Source: Escherichia coli
GTDB taxonomy: Bacteria > Pseudomonadota > Gammaproteobacteria > Enterobacterales > Enterobacteriaceae
DNA: 64,000 nt
NCBI RefSeq assembly: GCF_003018255.1
Contig: NZ_CP027440.1
Reading direction: 5' to 3' (one strand)
Of this stretch, positions 12,408 to 54,690 are shown in pieces. The position numbers and the translations under genes are program-made. Below the pieces are notes generated by a model. It searched no databases. It was not told the origin of the DNA and saw only the letters and a list, made by a program, of their open reading frames with translations. Every line of letters starts with the position of its first letter. The stretch's first letter is position 1.

Positions 12408-13868
<1,461 letters not shown>

Positions 13869-14032
13869 TTAGCCGATGTGCCTGATGTGCTCCGCTCATC
13901 AGGCCTGGCACTCTTTTAATATATTGAGCTCGCAATATTTTATATTACGCCTCAGTCGAAACACACAAAGCGCACTTTATTAACAAGCTAAAAGGCGCCG
14001 AAGCGCCTTTAGAAAATAGTCGAATCAGTGAA

Positions 14033-23847: not shown

Positions 23848-24033
23848 ATTTCTCTGAGATGTTCGCAAGCGGGCCAGTCCCCTGAGCCGATATTTCATAC
23901 CACAAGAATGTGGCGCTCCGCGGTTGGTGAGCATGCTCGGTCCGTCCGAGAAGCCTTAAAACTGCGACGACACATTCACCTTGAACCAAGGGTTCAAGGG
24001 TTACAGCCTGCGGCGGCATCTCGGAGATTCCCT
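23848..24033 (+). ncRNA. ssrS: 6S RNA, RNA polymerase sigma-70 holoenzyme regulator
   Basis: Sequence ATTTCTCTGAGATGTTCGCAAGCGGGCCAGTCCCCTGAGCCGATATTTCATACCACAAGAATGTGGCGCTCCGCGG... matches E. coli 6S RNA as I recall it; lies between zapA and ygfA. Confidence 0.9.
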
Positions 24034-24654: not shown

Positions 24655-24711
24655 GGGCGACACACCTGCATCGCCCTGATTGACATCGTTGATTCTTTAA
24701 CCTAATTTAGT

Positions 24712-24856
24712 GAGTAAGGGTAAGGGAGGATGACTCCTCCCCTGAGACTGACTGTTAATAAGCTGGGAAACTTATGAGTAACAGTACAATCAGTATGATG
24801 ACAAGTCGCATCATAACCCTTCTCCTTCAAGCCCTCGCTTCGGTGAGGGCTTTACC
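24712..24856 (+). ncRNA. sibC: SibC-type antisense sRNA (type I antitoxin); boundaries approximate
   Basis: + strand region fully antisense to ibsC, ending in the hairpin GCCCTC-gcttcggt-GAGGGC followed by TTT; K-12 has sibC/ibsC between ygfA and serA. Confidence 0.5.
24755..24814 (-). CDS. ibsC: Type I toxin IbsC, 19-aa hydrophobic peptide
   Basis: Minus-strand ORF read from sequence: ATGATGCGACTTGTCATCATACTGATTGTACTGTTACTCATAAGTTTCCCAGCTTATTAA = MMRLVIILIVLLLISFPAY; GGAGAAGGG SD upstream. Confidence 0.7.
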   Translation of the reverse strand: MMRLVIILIVLLLISFPAY

Positions 24857-27571: not shown

Positions 27572-28465
27572 ATGAAACGCCCGGACTACAGAACATTACA
27601 GGCACTGGATGCGGTGATACGTGAACGAGGATTTGAGCGCGCGGCACAAAAGCTGTGCATTACACAATCAGCCGTCTCACAGCGCATTAAGCAACTGGAA
27701 AATATGTTCGGGCAGCCGCTGTTGGTGCGTACCGTACCACCGCGCCCGACAGAACAAGGGCAAAAACTGCTGGCACTGCTACGCCAGGTGGAGTTACTGG
27801 AAGAAGAGTGGCTGGGCGATGAACAAACCGGTTCAACTCCGCTGCTGCTTTCACTGGCGGTCAACGCTGACAGTCTGGCGACGTGGTTGCTTCCGGCGCT
27901 GGCTCCTGTGTTAGCTGATTCGCCTATCCGCCTCAACTTGCAGGTAGAAGATGAAACCCGCACTCAGGAACGTCTGCGCCGCGGCGAAGTGGTCGGCGCG
28001 GTGAGTATTCAACATCAGGCGCTGCCGAGTTGCCTTGTCGATAAGCTCGGTGCGCTCGACTATCTGTTCGTCAGCTCAAAACCGTTTGCCGAAAAATATT
28101 TCCCTAACGGCGTAACGCGTTCGGCATTATTGAAAGCACCTGTGGTCGCTTTTGACCATCTTGACGATATGCACCAGGCCTTTTTGCAGCAAAACTTCGA
28201 TCTGCCTCCTGGCAGCGTACCCTGCCATATCGTTAATTCTTCGGAAGCGTTCGTGCAACTTGCTCGTCAGGGCACCACCTGCTGTATGATCCCGCACCTG
28301 CAAATCGAGAAAGAGCTGGCCAGCGGTGAACTGATTGACTTAACGCCAGGGCTATTTCAACGACGGATGCTCTACTGGCACCGCTTTGCTCCTGAAAGCC
28401 GCATGATGCGTAAAGTCACTGATGCGTTGCTCGATTATGGTCACAAAGTCCTTCGTCAGGATTAA
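27572..28465 (+). CDS. argP: LysR-family transcriptional regulator ArgP/IciA (297 aa)
   Basis: ORF 27362-28465 trimmed to the ATG at 27572 ([15 protein letters not shown]...); N-terminal HTH. Confidence 0.85.
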
Positions 28466-28668
28466 TCCATCAAATAATGCCTGATAGCACATATCAGGCG
28501 TTATCCTCACTTCTTTTTGTATTCCTTGAATCACATCACAAAATAGACAAATCTCAGGCGGCAAAAAACGACGTCTGAATGCATTTTTTTTGCTGGCGAC
28601 AAACCCACGTAAAAAGCTCACCGTAAGCGCAAATACCCTCATTTTGATTGCGTTTTACGGAGCAAATA

Positions 28669-30813
28669 ATGTCTAAGGTGCAGGAGTGGCAACAGCTTGC
28701 CAACAAGGAATTGAGCCGTCGGGAGAAAACTGTCGACTCGCTGGTTCAGCAAACCGCGGAAGGGATCGCCATCAAGCCGCTGTATACCGAAGCCGATCTC
28801 GATAATCTGGAGGTGACAGGTACCCTTCCTGGTTTGCCTCCCTACGTTCGTGGCCCGCGTGCCACTATGTATACCGCCCAACCGTGGACCATCCGTCAGT
28901 ATGCTGGTTTTTCAACAGCAAAAGAGTCCAACGCTTTTTATCGCCGTAACCTGGCCGCCGGGCAAAAAGGTCTTTCCGTTGCGTTTGACCTTGCCACCCA
29001 CCGAGGCTACGACTCCGATAACCCACGCGTGGCGGGCGACGTCGGCAAAGCGGGCGTTGCTATCGACACCGTGGAAGATATGAAAGTCCTGTTCGACCAG
29101 ATCCCGCTGGATAAAATGTCGGTTTCGATGACCATGAATGGCGCAGTACTACCAGTACTGGCGTTTTATATTGTCGCCGCAGAAGAGCAAGGTGTTACAC
29201 CCGATAAACTGACCGGCACCATTCAAAACGATATCCTCAAAGAGTATCTTTGCCGCAACACCTATATTTACCCGCCAAAACCGTCAATGCGTATTATCGC
29301 AGACATCATCGCCTGGTGTTCCGGCAACATGCCGCGATTTAATACCATCAGTATCAGCGGTTACCACATGGGTGAAGCGGGTGCCAACTGCGTGCAGCAG
29401 GTAGCATTTACGCTCGCCGATGGGATTGAGTACATCAAAGCAGCAATCTCCGCCGGGCTGAAAATTGATGACTTCGCTCCTCGTCTGTCGTTCTTCTTCG
29501 GCATTGGCATGGATCTGTTTATGAACGTCGCCATGTTGCGTGCGGCACGTTATTTATGGAGCGAAGCGGTCAGTGGATTTGGCGCACAGGATCCGAAATC
29601 ACTGGCGCTGCGTACCCACTGCCAGACCTCAGGCTGGAGCCTGACTGAACAGGATCCGTATAACAACGTTATCCGCACCACCATTGAAGCACTGGCTGCA
29701 ACGCTGGGCGGTACTCAGTCACTGCATACCAACGCCTTTGATGAAGCGCTTGGTTTGCCTACCGATTTCTCAGCACGCATTGCCCGCAATACCCAGATCA
29801 TCATTCAGGAAGAATCAGAACTCTGCCGCACCGTCGATCCACTGGCCGGATCCTATTACATTGAGTCGCTGACCGATCAAATCGTCAAACAAGCCAGAGC
29901 TATTATCCAACAGATCGACGAAGCCGGTGGCATGGCGAAAGCGATCGAAGCAGGTCTGCCAAAACGAATGATCGAAGAGGCCTCAGCGCGCGAACAGTCG
30001 CTGATCGACCAGGGCAAGCGTGTCATCGTTGGTGTCAACAAGTACAAACTGGATCACGAAGACGAAACCGATGTACTTGAGATCGACAACGTGATGGTGC
30101 GTAACGAGCAAATTGCTTCGCTGGAACGCATTCGCGCCACCCGTGATGATGCCGCCGTAACCGCCGCGTTGAACGCCCTGACTCACGCCGCACAGCATAA
30201 CGAAAACCTGCTGGCTGCCGCTGTTAATGCTGCTCGCGTTCGCGCCACCCTGGGTGAAATTTCCGATGCGCTGGAAGCCGCTTTCGACCGTTATCTGGTG
30301 CCAAGCCAGTGTGTTACCGGCGTGATTGCGCAAAGCTATCATCAGTCTGAGAAATCGGCCGCCGAGTTCGATGCCATTGTTGCGCAAACGGAGCAGTTCC
30401 TTGCCGACAATGGTCGTCGCCCGCGCATTCTGATCGCCAAAATGGGCCAGGATGGGCACGATCGCGGCGCGAAAGTGATCGCCAGCGCCTATTCCGATCT
30501 CGGTTTCGACGTAGATTTAAGCCCGATGTTCTCTACACCTGAAGAGATCGCCCGCCTGGCCGTAGAAAACGACGTTCACGTAGTGGGCGCATCCTCACTG
30601 GCTGCCGGTCATAAAACGCTGATCCCGGAACTGGTCGAAGCGCTGAAAAAATGGGGACGCAAAGATATCTGCGTGGTCGCGGGTGGCGTCATTCCGCCGC
30701 AGGATTACGCCTTCCTGCAAGAGCGCGGCGTGGCGGCGATTTATGGTCCAGGTACACCTATGCTCGACAGCGTGCGCGACGTACTGAATCTGATAAGCCA
30801 GCATCATGATTAA
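28669..30813 (+). CDS. scpA: Methylmalonyl-CoA mutase, B12-dependent (714 aa)
   Basis: ORF 28648-30813 trimmed to [15 protein letters not shown]...; C-terminal B12-binding region. Confidence 0.9.
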
Positions 30814-31801
30814 TGAAGCCAAGCTAGCAGAAAGTATTCGCCGCTTACGTCAGGGTGAGCGTGCCACGCTCGCCCAGGCCATGACGTTGGTGGAAAGCCG
30901 TCACCCGCGTCATCAGGCGCTAAGTACACAGCTGCTTGACGCCATTATGCCGTTCTGTGGTAACGCCCTGCGACTGGGCGTTACCGGCACACCCGGCGCG
31001 GGGAAAAGTACCTTTCTTGAAGCCTTTGGCATGTTGTTGATTCGTGAGGGATTAAAGGTTGCGGTTATTGCGGTCGATCCCAGCAGCCCGGTCACTGGCG
31101 GTAGCATTCTCGGGGATAAAACCCGCATGAATGACCTTGCGCGTGCCGAGGCGGCGTTTATTCGCCCGGTACCCTCCTCCGGCCATCTGGGCGGTGCCAG
31201 TCAGCGAGCGCGGGAATTAATGCTGTTATGCGAAGCGGCGGGTTATGACGTAGTGATTGTCGAAACGGTTGGCGTCGGGCAGTCAGAAACGGAAGTCGCC
31301 CGCATGGTGGACTGTTTTATCTCGTTGCAAATTGCCGGTGGCGGCGATGACCTGCAGGGCATTAAAAAGGGGCTGATGGAAGTGGCAGATCTGATCGTTA
31401 TCAACAAAGACGATGGCGATAACCATACCAATGTCGCCATTGCCCGGCATATGTACGAGAGTGCCCTGCATATTCTGCGACGTAAATACGACGAATGGCA
31501 GCCACGGGTTCTGACTTGTAGCGCACTGGAAAAACGTGGAATCGATGAGATCTGGCACGCCATCATCGACTTCAAAACCGCGCTAACTGCCAGTGGTCGT
31601 TTGCAACAAGTGCGGCAACAACAATCGGTGGAATGGCTGCGTAAACAAACCGAAGAAGAAGTACTGAATCACCTGTTCGCGAATGAAGATTTCGATCGCT
31701 ATTACCACCAGACGCTTTTAGCGGTCAAAAACAATACGCTCTCACCGCGCACCGGCCTGCGGCAGCTCAGTGAATTTATCCAGACGCAATATTTTGATTA
31801 A
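30806..31801 (+). CDS. argK: MeaB-like G-protein chaperone for methylmalonyl-CoA mutase (331 aa)
   Basis: ORF 30806-31801; P-loop GTPGAGKST; start overlaps the scpA stop by 8 nt. Confidence 0.85.
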
Positions 31802-31811
31802 AGGAATTTTT

Positions 31812-32597
31812 ATGTCTTATCAGTATGTGAACGTTGCCACTATCAACAAAGTGGCGGTCATTGAGTTTAACTATGGCCGAAAACTTAATGCCTTAAGTAA
31901 AGTCTTTATTGATGATCTTATGCAGGCGTTAAGCGATCTCAACCGGCCGGAAATTCGCTGTATCATTTTGCGCGCGCCGAGTGGATCCAAAGTCTTCTCC
32001 GCAGGTCACGATATTCACGAACTGCCGTCTGGCGGTCGCGATCCGCTCTCCTATGATGATCCATTGCGTCAAATCACCCGCATGATCCAAAAATTCCCGA
32101 AACCGATCATTTCGATGGTGGAAGGTAGTGTCTGGGGTGGCGCATTTGAAATGATCATGAGTTCCGATCTGATCATCGCCGCCAGTACCTCAACCTTCTC
32201 AATGACACCTGTAAACCTCGGCGTCCCGTATAACCTGGTCGGCATTCACAACCTGACCCGCGACGCGGGCTTCCACATTGTCAAAGAGCTGATTTTTACC
32301 GCTTCGCCAATCACCGCCCAGCGCGCACTGGCTGTCGGCATCCTCAACCATGTTGTGGAAGTGGAAGAACTGGAAGATTTCACCTTACAAATGGCGCACC
32401 ACATCTCTGAGAAAGCGCCGTTAGCCATTGCCGTTATCAAAGAAGAGCTGCGTGTACTGGGCGAAGCGCACACCATGAACTCCGATGAATTTGAACGTAT
32501 TCAGGGGATGCGCCGCGCGGTTTATGACAGCGAAGACTACCAGGAAGGGATGAACGCTTTCCTCGAAAAACGTAAACCTAATTTCGTTGGTCATTAA
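31812..32597 (+). CDS. scpB: Methylmalonyl-CoA decarboxylase, crotonase fold (261 aa)
   Basis: ORF 31770-32597 trimmed to MSYQYVNVATINKVAVIEFNY... Confidence 0.85.
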   Translation: MSYQYVNVATINKVAVIEFNYGRKLNALSKVFIDDLMQALSDLNRPEIRCIILRAPSGSKVFSAGHDIHELPSGGRDPLSYDDPLRQITRMIQKFPKPIISMVEGSVWGGAFEMIMSSDLIIAASTSTFSMTPVNLGVPYNLVGIHNLTRDAGFHIVKELIFTASPITAQRALAVGILNHVVEVEELEDFTLQMAHHISEKAPLAIAVIKEELRVLGEAHTMNSDEFERIQGMRRAVYDSEDYQEGMNAFLEKRKPNFVGH

Positions 32598-32620
32598 TCC
32601 CTGCGAACGAAGGAGTTAAA

Positions 32621-34099
32621 ATGGAAACTCAGTGGACAAGGATGACCGCCGATGAAGCGGCAGAAATTATCCAGCATAACGACATGGTGGCATTTAGCGG
32701 CTTTACCCCAGCGGGTTCGCCGAAAGCCTTACCCACCGCGATTGCCCGCAGAGCTAACGAACAGCATGAGGCCAAAAAGCCGTATCAAATTCGCCTGCTG
32801 ACGGGGGCGTCAATCAGCGCCGCCGCTGACGATGTACTTTCTGACGCCGATGCTGTTTCCTGGCGTGCGCCATATCAAACATCGTCCGGTTTACGTAAAA
32901 AGATCAATCAGGGCGCGGTGAGTTTCGTTGACCTGCATTTGAGCGAAGTGGCGCAAATGGTCAATTACGGTTTCTTCGGCGACATTGATGTTGCCGTCAT
33001 CGAAGCATCGGCACTGGCACCGGATGGTCGAGTCTGGTTAACCAGCGGGATCGGTAATGCGCCGACCTGGCTGCTGCGAGCGAAGAAAGTGATCATTGAA
33101 CTTAATCACTATCACGATCCGCGCGTTGCAGAACTGGCAGATATTGTGATTCCTGGCGCGCCACCGCGGCGCAATAGCGTGTCGATCTTCCATGCAATGG
33201 ATCGCGTCGGTACCCGCTATGTGCAAATCGATCCGAAAAAGATTGTCGCCGTCGTGGAAACCAACTTGCCTGACGCCGGTAATATGCTGGATAAGCAAAA
33301 TCCCATGTGCCAGCAGATTGCCGATAACGTGGTCACGTTCTTGTTGCAGGAAATGGCGCATGGGCGTATTCCGCCGGAATTTCTGCCGCTGCAAAGTGGC
33401 GTAGGCAACATCAATAATGCGGTAATGGCGCGTCTGGGGGAAAATCCGGAAATTCCTCCGTTTATGATGTATTCGGAAGTGCTACAGGAATCGGTGGTGC
33501 ATTTACTGGAAACGGGCAAAATCAGCGGGGCCAGCGCCTCCAGCCTGACTATCTCGGCCGATTCCCTGCGCAAGATTTACGACAATATGGATTACTTTGC
33601 CAGCCGCATTGTGTTGCGTCCGCAGGAGATTTCCAATAACCCGGAAATCATCCGTCGTCTGGGCGTCATCGCTCTGAACGTCGGCCTGGAGTTTGATATT
33701 TACGGGCATGCCAACTCAACGCACGTAGCCGGGGTCGATCTGATGAACGGCATCGGTGGCAGCGGTGATTTTGAACGCAACGCGTATCTGTCGATCTTTA
33801 TGGCCCCGTCGATTGCTAAAGAAGGCAAGATCTCAACCGTCGTGCCAATGTGCAGCCATGTTGATCACAGCGAACACAGCGTCAAAGTGATCATCACCGA
33901 ACAAGGCATCGCCGATCTGCGTGGTCTTTCCCCGCTTCAACGCGCCCGCACTATCATTGATAATTGTGCACATCCTATGTATCGGGATTATCTGCATCGC
34001 TATCTGGAAAATGCGCCCGGCGGACATATTCACCACGATCTTAGCCACGTCTTCGACTTACACCGTAATTTAATTGCAACCGGCTCGATGCTAGGTTAA
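32621..34099 (+). CDS. scpC: Propionyl-CoA:succinate CoA-transferase (492 aa)
   Basis: ORF 32621-34099; last gene of the sbm operon. Confidence 0.85.
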   Translation: METQWTRMTADEAAEIIQHNDMVAFSGFTPAGSPKALPTAIARRANEQHEAKKPYQIRLLTGASISAAADDVLSDADAVSWRAPYQTSSGLRKKINQGAVSFVDLHLSEVAQMVNYGFFGDIDVAVIEASALAPDGRVWLTSGIGNAPTWLLRAKKVIIELNHYHDPRVAELADIVIPGAPPRRNSVSIFHAMDRVGTRYVQIDPKKIVAVVETNLPDAGNMLDKQNPMCQQIADNVVTFLLQEMAHGRIPPEFLPLQSGVGNINNAVMARLGENPEIPPFMMYSEVLQESVVHLLETGKISGASASSLTISADSLRKIYDNMDYFASRIVLRPQEISNNPEIIRRLGVIALNVGLEFDIYGHANSTHVAGVDLMNGIGGSGDFERNAYLSIFMAPSIAKEGKISTVVPMCSHVDHSEHSVKVIITEQGIADLRGLSPLQRARTIIDNCAHPMYRDYLHRYLENAPGGHIHHDLSHVFDLHRNLIATGSMLG

Positions 34100-34992
34100 T
34101 GACTCGTCCCGTCACGATCTTCAGCAATATGCTGAAGCATCGTGGCGGTATAACGATGATTTCTGATTGAATAAAGATATTCCTGCATATACATCGGCCT
34201 GTGCGGCGCATCAAAATATTTCAGCGTTGCCGGATTCACCAGTCGCCAGGCAAAATGCGGGATCACCGTCAGAAAATGTCCGCGCTCCACGGCGCTGATT
34301 TTGGCCATAAAACTGTAGGGACGATAAATAATGGTTGGATTGATCCCACAAGGACGCATATTCGCATCAATCATTGCTTCGAAGTTAGCCCGGTTCTGAA
34401 AGCGCATTTGTAGCCAGGGTAGCTCCTGAAGCAACTCTTGCTCTTGTCGCTCTTCATAACGACGAGAAACGAGAAAGCCCAATCGCAGCGGCGGTAGTTC
34501 ACTGATAGTCAGGTTTTCCAGTTCCTGAACTCGTGCAGATACATGCTGTGGGGAGATAATAAAATCTAACTGACGGTCAAAAAGATTATCGATAACGCCA
34601 TTTTCGCTGAACTCAACTGGCTGGGCGGTCACGCCTTCATACTTATCTCCGAGACTAATCAACTGATCGAAAATAATTGTCGGATAAGTATTATCTATGC
34701 CAATCACAATTTCTCGTGAACGACGCCCTGAGTTATGGATTTCATTATCAATCGCAGAAAGCCGTTGATAAACCGGGAACAGTTTTTGATACAGTTCCTG
34801 TCCGGCTTTATTGAGGCTGATATTATTATCTTTGCGGGTAAATAGCGTATAGCCAATTTGTTCTTCCAGCGCGGCAATGCTTTTACCAAATGGCGAAGCT
34901 GTCATATGGATTTTTTCTGCCGCCCGGGCAATATTATTGGTTTGCGCTAATAAAATGAAATTGCGCATCTTTTTCGAAATAAAAATGTCCAT
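34096..34992 (-). CDS. ygfI: LysR-family transcriptional regulator (298 aa)
   Basis: ORF 34096-34992; N-terminal HTH; convergent with scpC, stop codons overlap. Confidence 0.75.
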   Translation of the reverse strand: MDIFISKKMRNFILLAQTNNIARAAEKIHMTASPFGKSIAALEEQIGYTLFTRKDNNISLNKAGQELYQKLFPVYQRLSAIDNEIHNSGRRSREIVIGIDNTYPTIIFDQLISLGDKYEGVTAQPVEFSENGVIDNLFDRQLDFIISPQHVSARVQELENLTISELPPLRLGFLVSRRYEERQEQELLQELPWLQMRFQNRANFEAMIDANMRPCGINPTIIYRPYSFMAKISAVERGHFLTVIPHFAWRLVNPATLKYFDAPHRPMYMQEYLYSIRNHRYTATMLQHIAEDRDGTSH

Positions 34993-35159
34993 ACCCCCTC
35001 CCCCGCATCCTTGTCCGCTTAACCGTTTCAGTCAGCCTATCCTTGATGAAACCGCGAGCAAAGATAGGTGATTACGTCATGGTTTTACAGAAAATTACAG
35101 AAAAAGGAGGCAATATCGGGTAAAGGCATTAGCCCGACGAATACGTCGGGCTACAAATA

Positions 35160-35900
35160 TTATTGTGCTGCAGGTGTTTTAGCGGGTTGTTGATCCACAG
35201 GTTCTAACTGGAAGACCACATCGACCTGATCATCAAACTGAATAGCGGCCTGCTCGTAAGTTTCCTGGGCGGACACCGGCGCGGCATCGGCTTTCATCAT
35301 CCGCACCATTGGGCTGGGCTGATAGTTGGAAACATGGTAGCGCACACTATATACCGGCCCCAGTTTACGATGAAAGCCGTTCGCCAGTTCCTGCGCCTGA
35401 TGAATCGCGTTATCAATCGCTGCCTTACGCGCTTTGTCTTTATAGGCATCCGGCTGCGCCACGCCCAGCGATACAGAACGAATTTCGTTAAGACCCGCCT
35501 TCAGCGCGCCATCCAGCAAGGAATTCAGTTTGTCTAACTGACGGAGCGTGACTTCCACCGTTCTCACAGCACGGTAGCCTTTCAGGATACTTTTACCATC
35601 CTGATAATCATAATCTGGCTGGGTGCGTAAGTTCGCTGAGCTGATATCTTTTTTCGCGATCTGATTGAGTTCAAGGAAGGAAATGTATTGTGCGACGCGC
35701 TCATCCGCCTGTTTCTTGGCAGTAGCGGCATCCTTCGCGGCCACGTTGACTTCAATCGCAAGAGTGGCAATGTCTGGCACCGCATCCACGCTTGCCGTAC
35801 CGGAGGTGACAATATGCGGTCCATCCGGCAATTCGTTAGCCTGCGCTGCCATCCCGCTAATACCCATTAATGCCGCCAGGGCGATAACTTTGAACTTCAC
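35160..35900 (-). CDS. yggE: SIMPL/DUF541 periplasmic protein YggE (246 aa)
   Basis: ORF 35160-35900; N-terminal signal peptide. Confidence 0.8.
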   Translation of the reverse strand: MKFKVIALAALMGISGMAAQANELPDGPHIVTSGTASVDAVPDIATLAIEVNVAAKDAATAKKQADERVAQYISFLELNQIAKKDISSANLRTQPDYDYQDGKSILKGYRAVRTVEVTLRQLDKLNSLLDGALKAGLNEIRSVSLGVAQPDAYKDKARKAAIDNAIHQAQELANGFHRKLGPVYSVRYHVSNYQPSPMVRMMKADAAPVSAQETYEQAAIQFDDQVDVVFQLEPVDQQPAKTPAAQ

Positions 35901-42868: not shown

Positions 42869-43184
42869 TCAATGCAGGGAGTCTATTATATTACACGTTT
42901 GGTCCGCGCCGCCGATCAGTAATGTCTGCGTCCGCACCCCATTCGCCGTCTGTTGGATACCGTTCACCAACTCGCCGCCCGTCACGCCCGTAGCGCTAAA
43001 GAGGATATCGTTCCCCCTCGCCGATAACCACTCGCCCACGAAAAGCGACGTCGTTTAATGCCTGGCGCATCGCGGTGACCGCCAGGCCATCAATTTTATT
43101 TTTGTCGCCACATCCGGTTTGCGGCCAGGCAGCCAACGCTGCCTGTTCCGTAACGCGAAATAATGGCCACGCCAGGGACATCAT
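42869..43184 (-). pseudogene. yggF: Remnant of class II fructose-1,6-bisphosphatase gene yggF (GlpX family): about 56 N-terminal codons joined out of frame to about 40 C-terminal codons
   Basis: Track ORF 42996-43184 ([20 protein letters not shown]...VVIGEGE) is a GlpX-type N-terminus ending in a premature TAG; the +1 frame of the same DNA continues ...[49 protein letters not shown] to a stop at 42869; only about 0.33 kb remains where a roughly 1-kb gene is expected. Confidence 0.6.
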
Positions 43185-46332: not shown

Positions 46333-46708
46333 AAATAATCCTTATTTTATTTTTAGGGCACCGTCCGGCGGTAAAAATAAAATACTCGTGCGGTTTAATG
46401 AAAGCAATTGGGTACGCGAGAAGAAAAACCCCATGAACAAAAATAATAAAACTTTAAATAACAACAACATGAAATTGATATTTTTAAAGTCAACTTTGTA
46501 TTTGTTATGTTTATCACAAAATCAACATTTTGATTGTTGTTGTATTTGTGATACATATCGCCATTTATTTATTGAATGTCCGAAAGCATACTTTTCTAAT
46601 GCAATGTTTTTTCGCTATACCCCTTTATAGATTCTGAATTCTCACCTGTCGGCTATTTTCTCCTCACCTCATGTGACATATTCCCCACTTTACTCAAGGA
46701 AGATTCAT

Positions 46709-47617
46709 ATGAAAGCACCTGTTTCAATAACCTCATTTCGCCCACAAAAATCTATTGCTATCGTCATTGGCGTGCTTGCCGTGGTTGTGCTGCCATTTCT
46801 CTCGTATTACACCGTTAATGAAGGTGAACGCGGCATTTTGCTGCGCTACGGAAAAATCGTAAAAGTTGCCGAGCCGGGTCTGGGTTTTAAGATCCCTTTT
46901 ATGGAAAGCGTGGAGAAAATTTCCACGCGTAATCAGGCTGTGGTTTATCAGGGATTACAGGCCTACAGCCGCGACCAGCAACCGGCACAAATGACAGTAT
47001 CAGTCAGCTTCCACATTAAACCTTCAGAAGCAGGCGCGGTTTATACCACCTACAACACCATTGAAGCATTAAAAGATCGTCTGATTGTCCGTCAGTTGCC
47101 AACTCAACTGGAGAACGTTTTCGGCCAATATACCGCCATCAGCGCCGTACAGGATCGTACAAAACTGGTTCAGGATCTACAAAATGCAATGCGTAAAGCC
47201 GTTGTTGGCCCGGTGGTGATTGATGGTGTCCAGATTGAAAATATTGATTTTTCTGACGCTTATGAAAAATCGATTGAAGATCGAATGAAAGCAGAAGTCG
47301 CCATTGCCACACGTAAGCAAAATCTGGAAACAGAGAAAATCCAGGCGCAAATAGCGGTAACTCAGGCCCAGGCAGAAGCAGACAGTAAACTGGCGGCAGC
47401 CAAAGCAGAAGCTGAGACTATTCGCGTAAGAGGCGCGGCAGAGGCTGAAACTATTCGTTTAAAAAGTGCGGCTGAAGCAGAAGCGATCCGCCTGCGCGGT
47501 GAAGCTCTGCGGGATAATCCCGGACTTGTTGCCCTCACCACTGCTGAGCGTTGGGACGGTAAGCTACCCGATACCATGATCCCCGGCAGTACAGTTCCGT
47601 TTATCTCTACTAAGTAA
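46709..47617 (+). CDS. SPFH/band-7 (stomatin/prohibitin/flotillin/HflKC-like) membrane protein, 302 aa, stand-alone
   Basis: ORF 46673-47617 trimmed to the ATG at 46709 with AAGGAAG 6 nt upstream; one N-terminal TM helix, SPFH core, C-terminal Ala/Glu-rich tail with tandem AEAETIR-like repeats; not at this position in K-12 as I recall. Confidence 0.8.
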   Translation: MKAPVSITSFRPQKSIAIVIGVLAVVVLPFLSYYTVNEGERGILLRYGKIVKVAEPGLGFKIPFMESVEKISTRNQAVVYQGLQAYSRDQQPAQMTVSVSFHIKPSEAGAVYTTYNTIEALKDRLIVRQLPTQLENVFGQYTAISAVQDRTKLVQDLQNAMRKAVVGPVVIDGVQIENIDFSDAYEKSIEDRMKAEVAIATRKQNLETEKIQAQIAVTQAQAEADSKLAAAKAEAETIRVRGAAEAETIRLKSAAEAEAIRLRGEALRDNPGLVALTTAERWDGKLPDTMIPGSTVPFISTK

Positions 47618-47645
47618 AAAAAGGGCCGCTTTCGCGGCCCTTCTC
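47616..47645. terminator. tktA rho-independent terminator, also abutting the SPFH gene stop
   Basis: Hairpin GGGCCGC-tttc-GCGGCCC flanked by A7 on the + side; on the - strand followed by TTTTTTT. Confidence 0.6.
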
Positions 47646-47662
47646 ACAAAGCATCTTACCGA

Positions 47663-51769: not shown

Positions 51770-51836
51770 TTGGATTTGCGAAACACAATTTTGTGCTAAT
51801 TATCGCCTTAAATGGGCGAGGCATCAAGCGAGGTTG

Positions 51837-52568
51837 CTATTTCCGACACGGTGGCGGCGCATAGCCATTGTTATCTGCCGGAAAGGCTTGTCCAGAGCAC
51901 GGCGGCAGCGCGTTTTGCGCCGGGCCTTGTAATTCAAAGGCGGCAAAGCCGATTACACCGGTATTACGCACATCGCCTTGCGCCGAATTGGCTGCGTAGG
52001 AATCAGCAACGTTGGCGAACTGAAAAGCCGCTTCGGTATGTTTATCTTTGCGGAATCCTTTAATCGCTAACGAATCTCCGGCATTCACAATATAGCCGTT
52101 GTTATTCAGCGAACCTTGCTTGCCGTTCAGCACATCCAGGCCATCAACCGTAGCAACGATCTCGTAGTTGGTGTTACGACTGTAATTGCGGACATATAAT
52201 TGATAATTCATTCCTACTCTGGCATGGACAATATAGCGTGGTTCATTATTTGACGAATCATAAACCCGCGTAATAGGTAGAGAATTAAAATTACCATCGC
52301 GAATAGCATATTCAAGTTCGTTAATACGAATGCTATAAACGCGGTCATAGCCGGAAGGAACAGTAGTCGAATAACTAATAACGATCATCTCTGCCGGATC
52401 GCGCCAAGCTCGCTCAGCAGATACGCCCTGAACCGTTGAGTGCACATCCCCACCCCAGGCGGTGCCGACATTGCCTGATGCACTGCTATTATACTGCGCA
52501 TTACTGGAACAACCGGCCAGCAGCACGGCTAATGCTATCAACGCGCTACGTACTTTCCCTTTTTTCAT
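51837..52568 (-). CDS. Lipoprotein of unknown function (243 aa)
   Basis: ORF 51837-52568; signal peptide with lipobox LLAG-C (MKKGKVRSALIALAVLLAGCSSN); GAGGGA SD upstream; Asn/Ser/Tyr/Gly-rich mature region with two C-terminal Cys; not at this position in K-12 as I recall. Confidence 0.75.
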   Translation of the reverse strand: MKKGKVRSALIALAVLLAGCSSNAQYNSSASGNVGTAWGGDVHSTVQGVSAERAWRDPAEMIVISYSTTVPSGYDRVYSIRINELEYAIRDGNFNSLPITRVYDSSNNEPRYIVHARVGMNYQLYVRNYSRNTNYEIVATVDGLDVLNGKQGSLNNNGYIVNAGDSLAIKGFRKDKHTEAAFQFANVADSYAANSAQGDVRNTGVIGFAAFELQGPAQNALPPCSGQAFPADNNGYAPPPCRK

Positions 52569-52655
52569 AACCGTTCCCTCTGCATTTAATTAATGCAGCG
52601 ATTGTAGGGAGATTATTTAATAAGAAAAGCAGCTAAATTATTTTTAAGAATATAT

Positions 52656-52696
52656 AAAAAGAAAGCGGGCCGATTTACGTAAATAAATCGACCCGC
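52656..52696 (-). terminator. speA rho-independent terminator
   Basis: 13-bp stem GCGGGCCGATTTA / TAAATCGACCCGC with one mismatch; on the - strand followed by TTTCTTTTT, about 20 nt after the speA stop. Confidence 0.55.
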
Positions 52697-52713
52697 CAGC
52701 GGAATAATCTTAA

Positions 52714-54690
52714 TTATTCATCTTCAAGATAGGTATAACCGTACAAACCTGCCTCGAACTCTTCAAGGAACTGTTGTTGCAGTTCAGCATCAAGATCGGT
52801 TTTCTTCACTTGATCACGGAACTGGGTTAACAACGTTTTCGGATCGAGCTGTACATATTGCAGCATATCCGCCACGGTATCGCCTTCGTCAGACAGTTCT
52901 ACTTCTACGCTGCCGTCAGGGAAGACGAACACGTCAACCGCTTCGGTATCACCGAACAGGTTGTGCATGTTGCCGAGGATCTCCTGATATGCGCCGACCA
53001 TGAAGAAACCGAGCATCGGCGGATTCTCTGGATCGTACTCCGGCATTGGCATTGTCGTGGCAATACCATCACCATCGATGTAGTGATCAATAGCACCGTC
53101 AGAATCACAGGTAATATCCAGCAGCACAGCGCGGCGCTCCGGCACTTGATCCAACCCTTCCAGCGGCAGAACCGGGAACAACTGGTCGATCCCCCATGCG
53201 TCCGGCATCGACTGGAACAGCGAGAAGTTGACGTACATTTTGTCAGCCATACGTTCCTGCAGCTCGTCGATAATCGGACGATGCGCACGGTTTTGCGGAT
53301 CCAGTTGCTTCTGCACTTCATGGCACATGCTCAGATAGAGTTGTTCTGCCCATGCACGTTCTTGCAGGCTAAAGGTGCCGGAAGAGTAGCCGATATGAAT
53401 ATCGTGCAGATCCATCTGGCTGTCGTGTAACCATTCACGCAGAGAACGACGAGTTCCCGGTTCGTGCATCTCCTGCCAGGTTTCCCACATGCTTTGCAGG
53501 GCGCGCGGTGCGTCTTCTGCAGGCGCGGTCGGCACCGTGTATTCGTTACGTTCCACGCCGATGATATTCGACACCAGCACGGTGTGATGCGCAGTCACCG
53601 CACGACCCGACTCGGTGATTACCGTCGGATGTGGCAGACCATTTTCTTCACACGCATCACCAATCGCCCAGATGATGTTGTTGGCGTATTCATTGAGGCC
53701 GTAGTTCACCGAACAGTCGGACTGCGAACGGGTGCCTTCATAGTCCACGCCCAGACCGCCGCCAACGTCGAAGCACTGAATATTGACGCCCAGCTTGTGC
53801 AGTTCCACATAGAAACGCGCGGATTCACGAACGCCTGTCGCGATATCGCGAATATTCGCCATCTGCGAACCGAGGTGGAAGTGCAGCAGTTGCAGGCTGT
53901 CGAGACGCCCGGCTTCACGCAGCGTTTCAACCAGTTGCAGTACCTGAGTCGCCGCCAGGCCGAACTTCGATTTTTCCCCGCCAGAGGACTGCCATTTACC
54001 CGAGCCCTGCGAAGCCAGACGTGCACGCACGCCCAGACGAGGAACGACATTCAGACGTTCTGCTTCATCCAGCACAATGGCAATTTCTGACATCTTCTCA
54101 ATGACCAGATAGACCTTGTGGCCCATCTTCTCGCCAATTAATGCCAGGCGGATATATTCGCGGTCCTTATAACCGTTGCAGACGATGACGCTACGGGTCA
54201 TGCCAGCATGTGCCAGCACCGCCATCAACTCCGCTTTGGAACCGGCTTCCAGGCCCAGCGGTTCGCCCGAATGAATCAGGGACTCAATCACGCGGCGGTG
54301 CTGGTTAACTTTGATCGGATAAACGAGGAAGTAATCGCCGTTATAGCCGTAGGATTCCCGCGCACGTTTGAACGCGGCGTTAATAGAACGCAAACGGTGC
54401 TGCAGGATCTGTGGGAAACAGAACAGTGCAGGCAGACGCTGGCCCTGTGCTTCACGAGTTTTCACTAACTGCGCGAGATCGACGCGAGCTTCCGGGACGT
54501 CCGGGTCCGGGCACACGCTAATGTGGCCCAGCTCGTTAACGTCATAGTAGTTATTGCCCCACCAGGCAATATTGTAAGTACGCAGCATCTTGCTGGCTTC
54601 CTGGGAGCTCATTGCAACCTCCTGCATGGAGCGTAGTACACCGTGTTCGCCCGCTGACGAAGGCAAACCCATAGACATGTCGTCAGACAT
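52714..54690 (-). CDS. speA: Biosynthetic arginine decarboxylase (658 aa)
   Basis: ORF 52714-54702 trimmed to [21 protein letters not shown]...; PLP-dependent fold-III decarboxylase. Confidence 0.95.

Follow-up and report, generated by a model that had tools for sequence, protein, structure and literature searches.

The intact sleeping beauty mutase (scp) operon of an Escherichia coli chromosome and its convergent neighbour srsR

Introduction

The sbm/scp ("sleeping beauty mutase") operon of Escherichia coli is silent or poorly expressed in laboratory strains (PMC3850637, PMC5512728). We examined the copy found in a 64,000-nucleotide (nt) stretch of an E. coli chromosome (NCBI RefSeq assembly GCF_003018255.1, contig NZ_CP027440.1), to which we refer as the window and whose positions are used throughout. 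An earlier note, made from the sequence alone, had described four complete operon genes, scpA, argK, scpB and scpC, a convergent LysR-family gene, ygfI (srsR), and poor expression in laboratory strains, the last in agreement with the two papers cited above. We put the probability that the region is the standard E. coli sbm/scp operon with convergent srsR, in its intact wild-type state, at about 95%. The locus is already known and fully annotated, it is in the common intact state, and it has no feature that is private to the strain. A candidate terminator embedded in srsR, the invariant linkage of srsR to scpC, and a clade-wide deletion of the operon with decay of the regulator gene are modest additions to what is known.

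According to the literature on the K-12 proteins (PMC3850637, PMC5512728, PMC10832534), ScpA would convert succinyl-coenzyme A (succinyl-CoA) to (R)-methylmalonyl-CoA using adenosylcobalamin (AdoCbl), helped by the GTPase chaperone ArgK/MeaB. ScpB would form propionyl-CoA by decarboxylating methylmalonyl-CoA, and ScpC would move CoA from propionyl-CoA to succinate, yielding propionate and succinyl-CoA. The mutase activity of K-12 Sbm on succinyl-CoA/methylmalonyl-CoA with AdoCbl is known (PMC5512728).

Results

We placed the locus using a six-frame list of open reading frames (ORFs) and megablast against 5426 complete E. coli genomes. The gene order is the chromosomal order of E. coli, rpiA-argP-scpA-argK/meaB-scpB-scpC, followed on the other strand by srsR(ygfI)-yggE-argO (Table 1). 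In a base-by-base comparison with K-12 MG1655, scpA, argK, scpB, scpC and srsR all have K-12 lengths, ATG start codons and TAA stop codons, and we found no frameshift or internal stop codon in any of the five; such defects in any of the four operon genes, on precise alignment, would have refuted the earlier note. The scpA and argK genes overlap by 8 nt (30806-30813; ATGATTAA), argK and scpB are separated by 10 nt (31802-31811), and scpB and scpC by 23 nt. Shine-Dalgarno sequences are present in these two gaps. Because the genes are so tightly packed, the arrangement is consistent with a single transcription unit in which scpA and argK may be translationally coupled. The stop codons of scpC (34097-34099) and, on the minus strand, srsR (34096-34098) share a TTAA tetranucleotide. 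Thus, the earlier note was right about the intactness and packing of the four genes and exact about the overlap of 8 nt, the gap of 10 nt and the TTAA that the stop codons share. The operon start at 28648 did not stand: this position is the first in-frame TTG of a mechanically defined ORF. We rejected TTG 28648 as the scpA start because it has no Shine-Dalgarno sequence, while ATG 28669 agrees with the annotation and follows the Shine-Dalgarno sequence GGAG at a distance of 5 nt. The promoter range of 28466-28668 given in the same note already implies this ATG. Since the region shares 98.3% identity with K-12 and 99.8% with the nearest complete genomes, the gene layout does not reflect chance. 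We found no sequence evidence that contradicts identification of the region as the sbm/scp operon.

Table 1. Features of the scp-srsR locus, with positions in the window
Feature	Position	Strand	Description
argP	27572-28465	+	upstream neighbour, co-directional with the operon; K-12 length, 0 amino-acid differences; annotated argP in the nearest genome
argP-scpA spacer	28466-28668	+	203 nt; presumed scp promoter and leader
Hairpin directly past the argP stop codon	28479-28499	+	GCCTGATAGCACATATCAGGC; no T-run immediately after the stem; -17.5 kcal/mol, z = -5.3
scpA (sbm)	28669-30813	+	AdoCbl-dependent methylmalonyl-CoA mutase; 714 amino acids, 2145 nt
Equivalent of K-12 Rho region 3060897(+)	~28716	+	placed by homology
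argK (ygfD/meaB)	30806-31801	+	G-protein chaperone of the mutase; 331 amino acids, 996 nt
scpB (ygfG)	31812-32597	+	methylmalonyl-CoA decarboxylase, crotonase fold; 261 amino acids, 786 nt
Terminator-like hairpin, scpB 5' end	31833-31858	+	from terminator scan; beside the equivalent of 3064032 (~31851)
scpC (ygfH)	32621-34099	+	propionyl-CoA:succinate CoA-transferase; 492 amino acids, 1479 nt
TTAA common to the scpC and srsR stop codons	34096-34099		convergent genes; read from the sequence
srsR (ygfI)	34096-34992	-	LysR-family regulator, convergent with scpC; 298 amino acids, 897 nt
Compound stem-loop and U-run	34104-34168	+	candidate operon terminator; opposite strand to srsR, inside its codons ~278-296

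We assigned the encoded proteins to families using curated NCBIfam equivalog/subfamily cut-offs, Pfam domains and matches in the PDB. All five exceed equivalog or subfamily cut-offs. ScpA scores 1251.4 against NF006944 (cut-off 876), has the Pfam domains MM_CoA_mutase (PF01642, residues 28-539) and B12-binding (PF02310, residues 586-701), and carries the DxHxxG cobalamin-ligand motif as DGHDRG (residues 595-600). ArgK scores 494.3 against NF006958 (cut-off 329), has the GTPase motifs GTPGAGKS (P-loop, residues 61-68) and NKDD (residues 200-203), and has as its best PDB match E. coli YgfD (2p67; full-length, E = 8.7e-217). For ScpB, the score against NF008506 is 486.8 (cut-off 257) and the best PDB match is E. 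coli YgfG (1ef8; residues 1-261, E = 5e-172). ScpC scores 754.5 against TIGR03458 (cut-off 658.7) and 601.8 against NF053853 (cut-off 500), with domains AcetylCoA_hydro (PF02550) and AcetylCoA_hyd_C (PF13336); as a butyryl-CoA:acetate type enzyme (NF053666) it falls under the cut-off (709 versus 740). SrsR scores 635.2 against NF047842 (cut-off 425) and has domains HTH_1 (PF00126) and LysR_substrate (PF03466). Hence, the gene identities and order proposed from the sequence agree with both the RefSeq annotation and the family models.

The four enzymes differ from their K-12 counterparts by 12 amino acid substitutions: N3K, H27Q, V537A, S565A and E665K among the 714 residues of ScpA, T6K, Y50F, T54A and R301H in ArgK, V9A in ScpB, and N11D and V277E in ScpC. 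SrsR has none. The exact sequences of all five proteins are public under these names, most of them, including ScpA, on at least 1000 contigs. At the gene level there is nothing new; every protein allele is already public.

Across the four scp genes, we counted 82 synonymous and 12 non-synonymous differences from K-12. The pooled ratio of non-synonymous to synonymous substitution rates (dN/dS) is ~0.045, with values of 0.03-0.05 for the individual genes, so the operon is under clear purifying selection. Escherichia marmotae (DNA identity of 87%) and Klebsiella grimontii (80%) have the same gene order with convergent srsR, the same 8-nt overlap and the same gap of 10 nt. Given the low dN/dS and the recurrence of this architecture, the operon is maintained in nature, despite its silence in the laboratory.

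The region between argP and scpA had been proposed as the place to look for strain-specific differences. Aligned with K-12, the spacer has two single-nucleotide polymorphisms (SNPs), at 28503 and 28626, both of which are A instead of G, and over its 203 nt we found no indel or insertion sequence relative to K-12. Both bases are also present in the nearest neighbour and in three genomes of a clade that lacks most of the operon (described below), and are therefore not private to the strain. A 261-nt query (28440-28700) had matches spanning at least 80% of it in 5424 of the 5426 genomes, with 97.7-100% identity in those sampled, and the exact 261-nt allele recurs in other isolates. From these alignments and this survey, we reject a strain-specific promoter change; the comparison suggested in the earlier note turned up nothing particular to the strain. 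Two observations concern the control regions of other sequences and of srsR. In strain ET5, the spacer query is split between two places (68% coverage), making an insertion in the promoter region possible. At window position 34993, a single base that K-12 lacks stands directly 5' of the srsR ATG (GGGGGAGGGGG-T-ATG versus GGGGGAGGGGG-ATG), which shifts the Shine-Dalgarno spacing by 1 nt.

A promoter scan detected no sigma-70 consensus in the spacer. The six weak matches between 27300 and 36200 are fewer than the 8.3 expected from shuffled sequence, and we rejected them as candidate promoters of the operon. An Rfam scan of the whole window at gathering thresholds gave no cobalamin riboswitch in the 5' leader and no other known RNA in the operon; since no Rfam family matched in the spacer, a cobalamin riboswitch there is not indicated. 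For the hairpin directly past the argP stop codon (Table 1), the terminator scan gave the minus strand only. A sigma-S peak has been reported upstream of K-12 scpA by chromatin immunoprecipitation with sequencing (PMC4447067); its converted coordinates correspond to approximately 28397-28546 of the window.

Published data for K-12 place two Rho-termination regions within the operon (Adams et al. 2021; PMC7815308, Supplementary file 2). The stronger, at 3060897(+), lies 48 nt into scpA, with upstream/downstream reads of 159/15 in untreated cells and 543/563 in the presence of bicyclomycin; its Rho score is 10.99 (p = 3.8e-29). The second, at 3064032(+), lies at the argK/scpB junction and has a Rho score of 4.86. 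Neither region is discussed in the text of that paper (PMC7815308). Rho termination may be a large part of the operon's "sleep". A point against attenuation of an scp promoter is that the site at 3060897 may instead represent termination of argP read-through, since the 800-nt upstream counting window includes argP. Either way, Rho keeps the operon off in K-12, and by homology it probably does the same in the window strain. The proposed account of low expression in the laboratory has three parts. By homology to K-12, the spacer would lack a strong sigma-70 promoter. Rho termination at the start of scpA would shield the operon against transcription reading through from argP and likewise against any weak promoter that the operon itself has. 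Finally, E. coli does not synthesize B12 and has to import it, which would be the third reason. Expression of the distal genes may be lower, because the second K-12 Rho region lies at the argK/scpB junction.

Immediately downstream of scpC, on the scp-sense strand, we identified a compound stem-loop followed by a U-run (Table 1). A 5-base-pair (bp) outer helix pairs 34104-34108 with 34155-34159, and an 18-bp main helix pairs 34109-34126 with 34130-34148. The fold is predicted at -31.2 kcal/mol over 70 nt, with z = -3.2 for a 121-nt fold. The U-run (34160-34168) has the sequence UUUCUGAUU in E. coli; most other genera have UUUUU. We assessed covariation and strand preference in an alignment of 38 species with a mean column identity of 83%, using 500 shuffles. 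In the main helix, 92.5% of cells are paired, and 7 of the 18 pairs have changed on both sides. For the whole 23-pair structure, 10 pairs have changed on both sides, versus 5.1 +/- 1.2 in the shuffles, none of which reached 10; the covariation score is 0.152 versus 0.120. Sliding the partner columns reduced pairing to 27-55%. In the scp sense there are 82 G.U cells versus 18 A.C cells, and the hairpin is predicted to be more stable in this sense in 35 of the 38 species (mean of -22.3 versus -16.1 kcal/mol). Synonymous-codon identity in 13-codon windows over the hairpin is 0.72, versus an srsR mean of 0.535, and these windows rank 1-2 of 286; amino acid identity over the hairpin is 0.66, versus a gene average of 0.84. 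Together, the covariation, strand asymmetry and synonymous constraint argue for a functional RNA structure in the scp sense. We propose that the operon transcript would end at this long, conserved stem-loop and U-run, which start a few nt after the scpC stop codon, and that the candidate terminator would overlap the final ~20 codons of srsR, which runs on the opposite strand. The converse arrangement, an srsR terminator inside the 3' end of scpC, was rejected; minus-strand folds there are unremarkable (z = -0.4 and -0.8).

To place srsR in a wider context, we used a scan for SrsR with one genome per species, which reaches close SrsR orthologues only and gave 42 loci. Represented are Escherichia, Citrobacter, Salmonella enterica (subspecies arizonae and diarizonae), the Klebsiella oxytoca group, Kosakonia, Yersinia, Pluralibacter, Yokenella and Superficieibacter, besides a few records with odd labels. 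At each of the 42 loci, srsR converges on scpC and adjoins it, and scpB is next; hence, srsR travels with the scp genes. The other flank of srsR is not yggE in some genera: Yersinia has yniB-like and haloacid dehalogenase (HAD) hydrolase genes there, and Kosakonia has an H-NS-like gene. A 4-nt stop-codon overlap of the form YTAR (TTAA, CTAA, TTAG or CTAG) is present in 36 of the 42 loci. Loci that depart from this form show an overlap of 15 nt (Salmonella) or 30 nt (two Kosakonia species), direct abutment (one record), a gap of 128 nt (one record) or an early srsR stop codon (the type strain of Escherichia albertii).

This linkage makes a regulatory link between srsR and scp plausible, although unproven; the earlier note had not asserted one. 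SrsR binding in K-12 has been surveyed by genomic SELEX (gSELEX), which gave 10 target loci; none is scp, and the operon is not mentioned in the paper (PMC9181523). We searched for the SrsR box (TCAGATTTTGC, with up to 2 mismatches) and found none upstream of scpA or srsR; across the window there are 31 matches, versus 24 +/- 4 expected, and we rejected SrsR boxes at these two sites.

The state of the operon varies across E. coli. Positions 28000-35500 are covered to at least 80% in 4275 of the 5426 complete genomes, and the window strain thus has the majority, intact state. Most of the remaining genomes have a ~4.3-kb deletion that begins in mid-scpA and reaches as far as the final ~150 nt of scpC, and what is left of scpA carries smaller deletions. 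A 141-nt probe for the deletion junction has a full match in 1114 of the 5426 genomes, which points to a single ancestral deletion in a clade with O25b:H4-ST131 among its members. ST131 is part of phylogroup B2. In a full-text literature search, we found no paper linking deletion of the operon to this phylogroup, nor one on the deletion and the ensuing decay of srsR. We sampled four members of the clade, strains R7, ST131, VTB96929v and 2022H047, in which srsR has 0, 1 (S92*) or 2 (S92* and W193*) premature stop codons; an exact 61-mer containing S92* is present in 552 genomes. Because identity to the window over the region reaches 99% or more in only 82 genomes, the window strain represents a minority lineage, with no unique feature at this locus. 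Two further records involve srsR. Escherichia albertii NBRC 107761 has an srsR stop at codon 193, the same codon as W193*, and its adjoining scpC and scpB look intact. A 187-kb, plasmid-sized record (NZ_CP137739.1) carries a srsR-yggE fragment with 99.3% identity.

Other features of the window

Elsewhere in the window, yggF, a glpX paralogue encoding a class II fructose-1,6-bisphosphatase, has an internal deletion of ~643 bp (43015-43022) when compared with K-12 and also with the nearest complete genome, that of strain 200164. The 8-bp overlap at the deletion junction suggests microhomology, and the gene looks like a strain-specific pseudogene. At 13868-13990, the window lacks the putative oxidoreductase gene ygfF, which K-12 has between bglA and gcvP; ~1 kb of K-12 sequence is replaced by ~120 bp, and the nearest neighbour is alike. 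The yqfE remnant between rpiA and argP (~27371) is ~45 bp shorter than in K-12, as it is in the nearest neighbour (a 186-nt versus a 231-nt ORF).

Relative to K-12, there are ~1.25 kb of extra sequence between cmtB and tktA (46410-47662), including a plus-strand ORF of 314 amino acids (46673-47617) that is annotated in the neighbour genome as a prohibitin-family protein; an IS200C copy at this site in the neighbour genome is not in the window. Between speB and speA (51778-52714), the window has another ~0.9 kb that K-12 lacks, with a minus-strand ORF of 243 amino acids (51837-52568) that corresponds to hypothetical protein WP_000715526.1 in the neighbour genome. The only Rfam matches at gathering threshold in the whole window are 6S RNA (ssrS) and the SibC antitoxin RNA, at 23848-24031 and 24680-24830.

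Discussion

Could the operon be a relic that is intact by chance, functionless in nature and headed for the decay seen in the clade containing ST131? That E. coli does not make B12 is in keeping with this idea, as are the common ~4.3-kb deletion in 1114 of 5426 genomes and the small deletions in the scpA remnant; indeed, the operon is dispensable in some lineages, since ~20% of complete E. coli genomes have deleted it, and this weighs against a functional reading. So does its unsettled physiological role: besides the silence in laboratory strains (PMC3850637), the pathway has been said to need a methylmalonyl-CoA epimerase, which E. coli lacks (PMC5512728). Propionyl-CoA was formed in Pseudomonas taiwanensis, in which no epimerase is known to the authors of that study (PMC10832534). 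We nevertheless consider a relic highly improbable, given dN/dS of ~0.045 across the four genes, conservation of gene order, overlap and gap at 80-87% DNA identity in E. marmotae and K. grimontii, intact scpB and scpC beside srsR in 42 species-level genomes, and a loss that goes back to one junction, and hence to one ancestral event. Changes in the control regions offer equally little to explain. In the two control regions, the two spacer SNPs and the base inserted at 34993 are all that sets the non-coding sequence apart from K-12, yet it is very doubtful that any of them alters expression relative to K-12: both SNP bases recur in the nearest neighbour and in three genomes of the deletion clade, other isolates carry exactly the same 261-nt allele, and neither SNP makes or destroys a recognisable promoter hexamer.

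Intrinsic termination of the operon is the best reading of the hairpin downstream of scpC, on comparative grounds; by analogy with Rho-terminated transcripts, it may alternatively be a protective 3' stem-loop (PMC6061677). The hairpin has no match in Rfam at gathering thresholds and is not among the matches of a simple terminator scan. Several observations weigh against a terminator. The supplementary files of Adams et al. 2021 (PMC7815308) list no mapped 3' end at K-12 30662xx-30663xx, which says little, because the operon was nearly silent in those cultures. The U-run is interrupted in E. coli (UUUCU). Yersinia has, at the same place, a differently sequenced 10-bp stem with UUUUU directly after it; this is plausible, but the Yersinia folds are not significant alone (z = -0.1 to -1.8), and we did not accept them as independent support. 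The palindrome (34109-34148) might accordingly have nothing to do with scp termination and reflect coding constraint on the SrsR C-terminus, a protein-binding site in DNA or a structure in srsR mRNA, particularly as it lies within coding sequence and the alignment is only moderately diverged. We regard this as unlikely. Coding constraint would not predict amino acid identity below the gene average where synonymous-codon identity is the highest in the gene; the 82 G.U cells of the scp sense would be A.C mismatches in srsR mRNA and irrelevant to duplex DNA; 10 pairs have changed on both sides, versus 5.1 +/- 1.2 in shuffles; and 35 of 38 species fold more stably in the scp sense. A different proposal, that SrsR is a dedicated regulator of scp and that the genes form one functional module rather than being accidental neighbours, we hold only tentatively. 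It draws on the convergent abutment in 42 of 42 loci, including Yersinia and Kosakonia with their different other flank, and on the stepwise gain of S92* and W193* in srsR after the deletion. LysR regulators are usually divergent from their targets, whereas srsR is convergent with scp; there is no SrsR box upstream of scpA or srsR, and window-wide matches are at chance; co-decay has been seen in a single lineage; and the species-level scan is limited to close SrsR orthologues. The 10 gSELEX targets likewise do not include scp (PMC9181523).

A broader and more speculative view, to which we give somewhat less credence, is that scp and srsR are one co-inherited module with a terminator inside the last ~20 codons of srsR, and that the two are coupled. 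If this is true, transcription of the awakened operon would run ~70 nt head-on into srsR, because the operon terminator would sit inside those codons. Coupling could then occur either through regulation of scp by SrsR or through damping of srsR by scp transcription. Loss of the operon would make SrsR dispensable, as the stepwise pseudogenisation in the clade containing ST131 suggests.

The locus itself carries little weight, and the additional findings are of modest value to three groups. For those who engineer the "sleeping beauty" pathway, the K-12 data point to Rho termination at the start of scpA, and not only to a weak promoter, as a source of silence. For E. coli population genomics, about one-fifth of complete genomes appear to share one ancestral deletion of the operon, after which srsR decays in the clade. 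For work on SrsR, the regulon defined by gSELEX does not include the gene cluster that is invariably attached to srsR across Enterobacterales. The embedded terminator, if it is one, would be a clean example of a structured RNA constraining the synonymous sites of a convergent gene.

The closest known system is the K-12 sbm operon itself (b2917-b2920) with srsR/ygfI (b2921). The window resembles it in gene order, lengths, start and stop codons, the 8-nt overlap, the 10- and 23-nt gaps and the TTAA, and differs by the 12 enzyme substitutions, the two spacer SNPs and the one base 5' of the srsR ATG. Beyond E. coli, ScpA has full-length homology to the mutases of P. shermanii (1req) and human (MUT; 2xij/8gju), with E-values of ~1e-270 to 1e-278, and contains their DxHxxG motif; ArgK resembles the MeaB/MMAA chaperones (M. 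extorquens MeaB, 2qm7) and likewise has G3E GTPase motifs. E. coli differs from these other mutase/MeaB systems in that its mutase gene shares an operon with genes for a decarboxylase and a CoA-transferase, and in the direction attributed to its mutase in the literature, from succinyl-CoA to methylmalonyl-CoA. Lastly, the candidate terminator resembles the stem-loops found at mRNA 3' ends, whether intrinsic terminators or protective structures (Dar and Sorek 2018; PMC6061677), in lying on the sense strand, right after the last stop codon, with a U-rich stretch in most genera. It differs from them in being compound, with a 5-bp outer helix, an internal loop and an 18-bp helix, in having an interrupted U-run in E. 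coli, and in lying wholly within the coding sequence of the convergent srsR.

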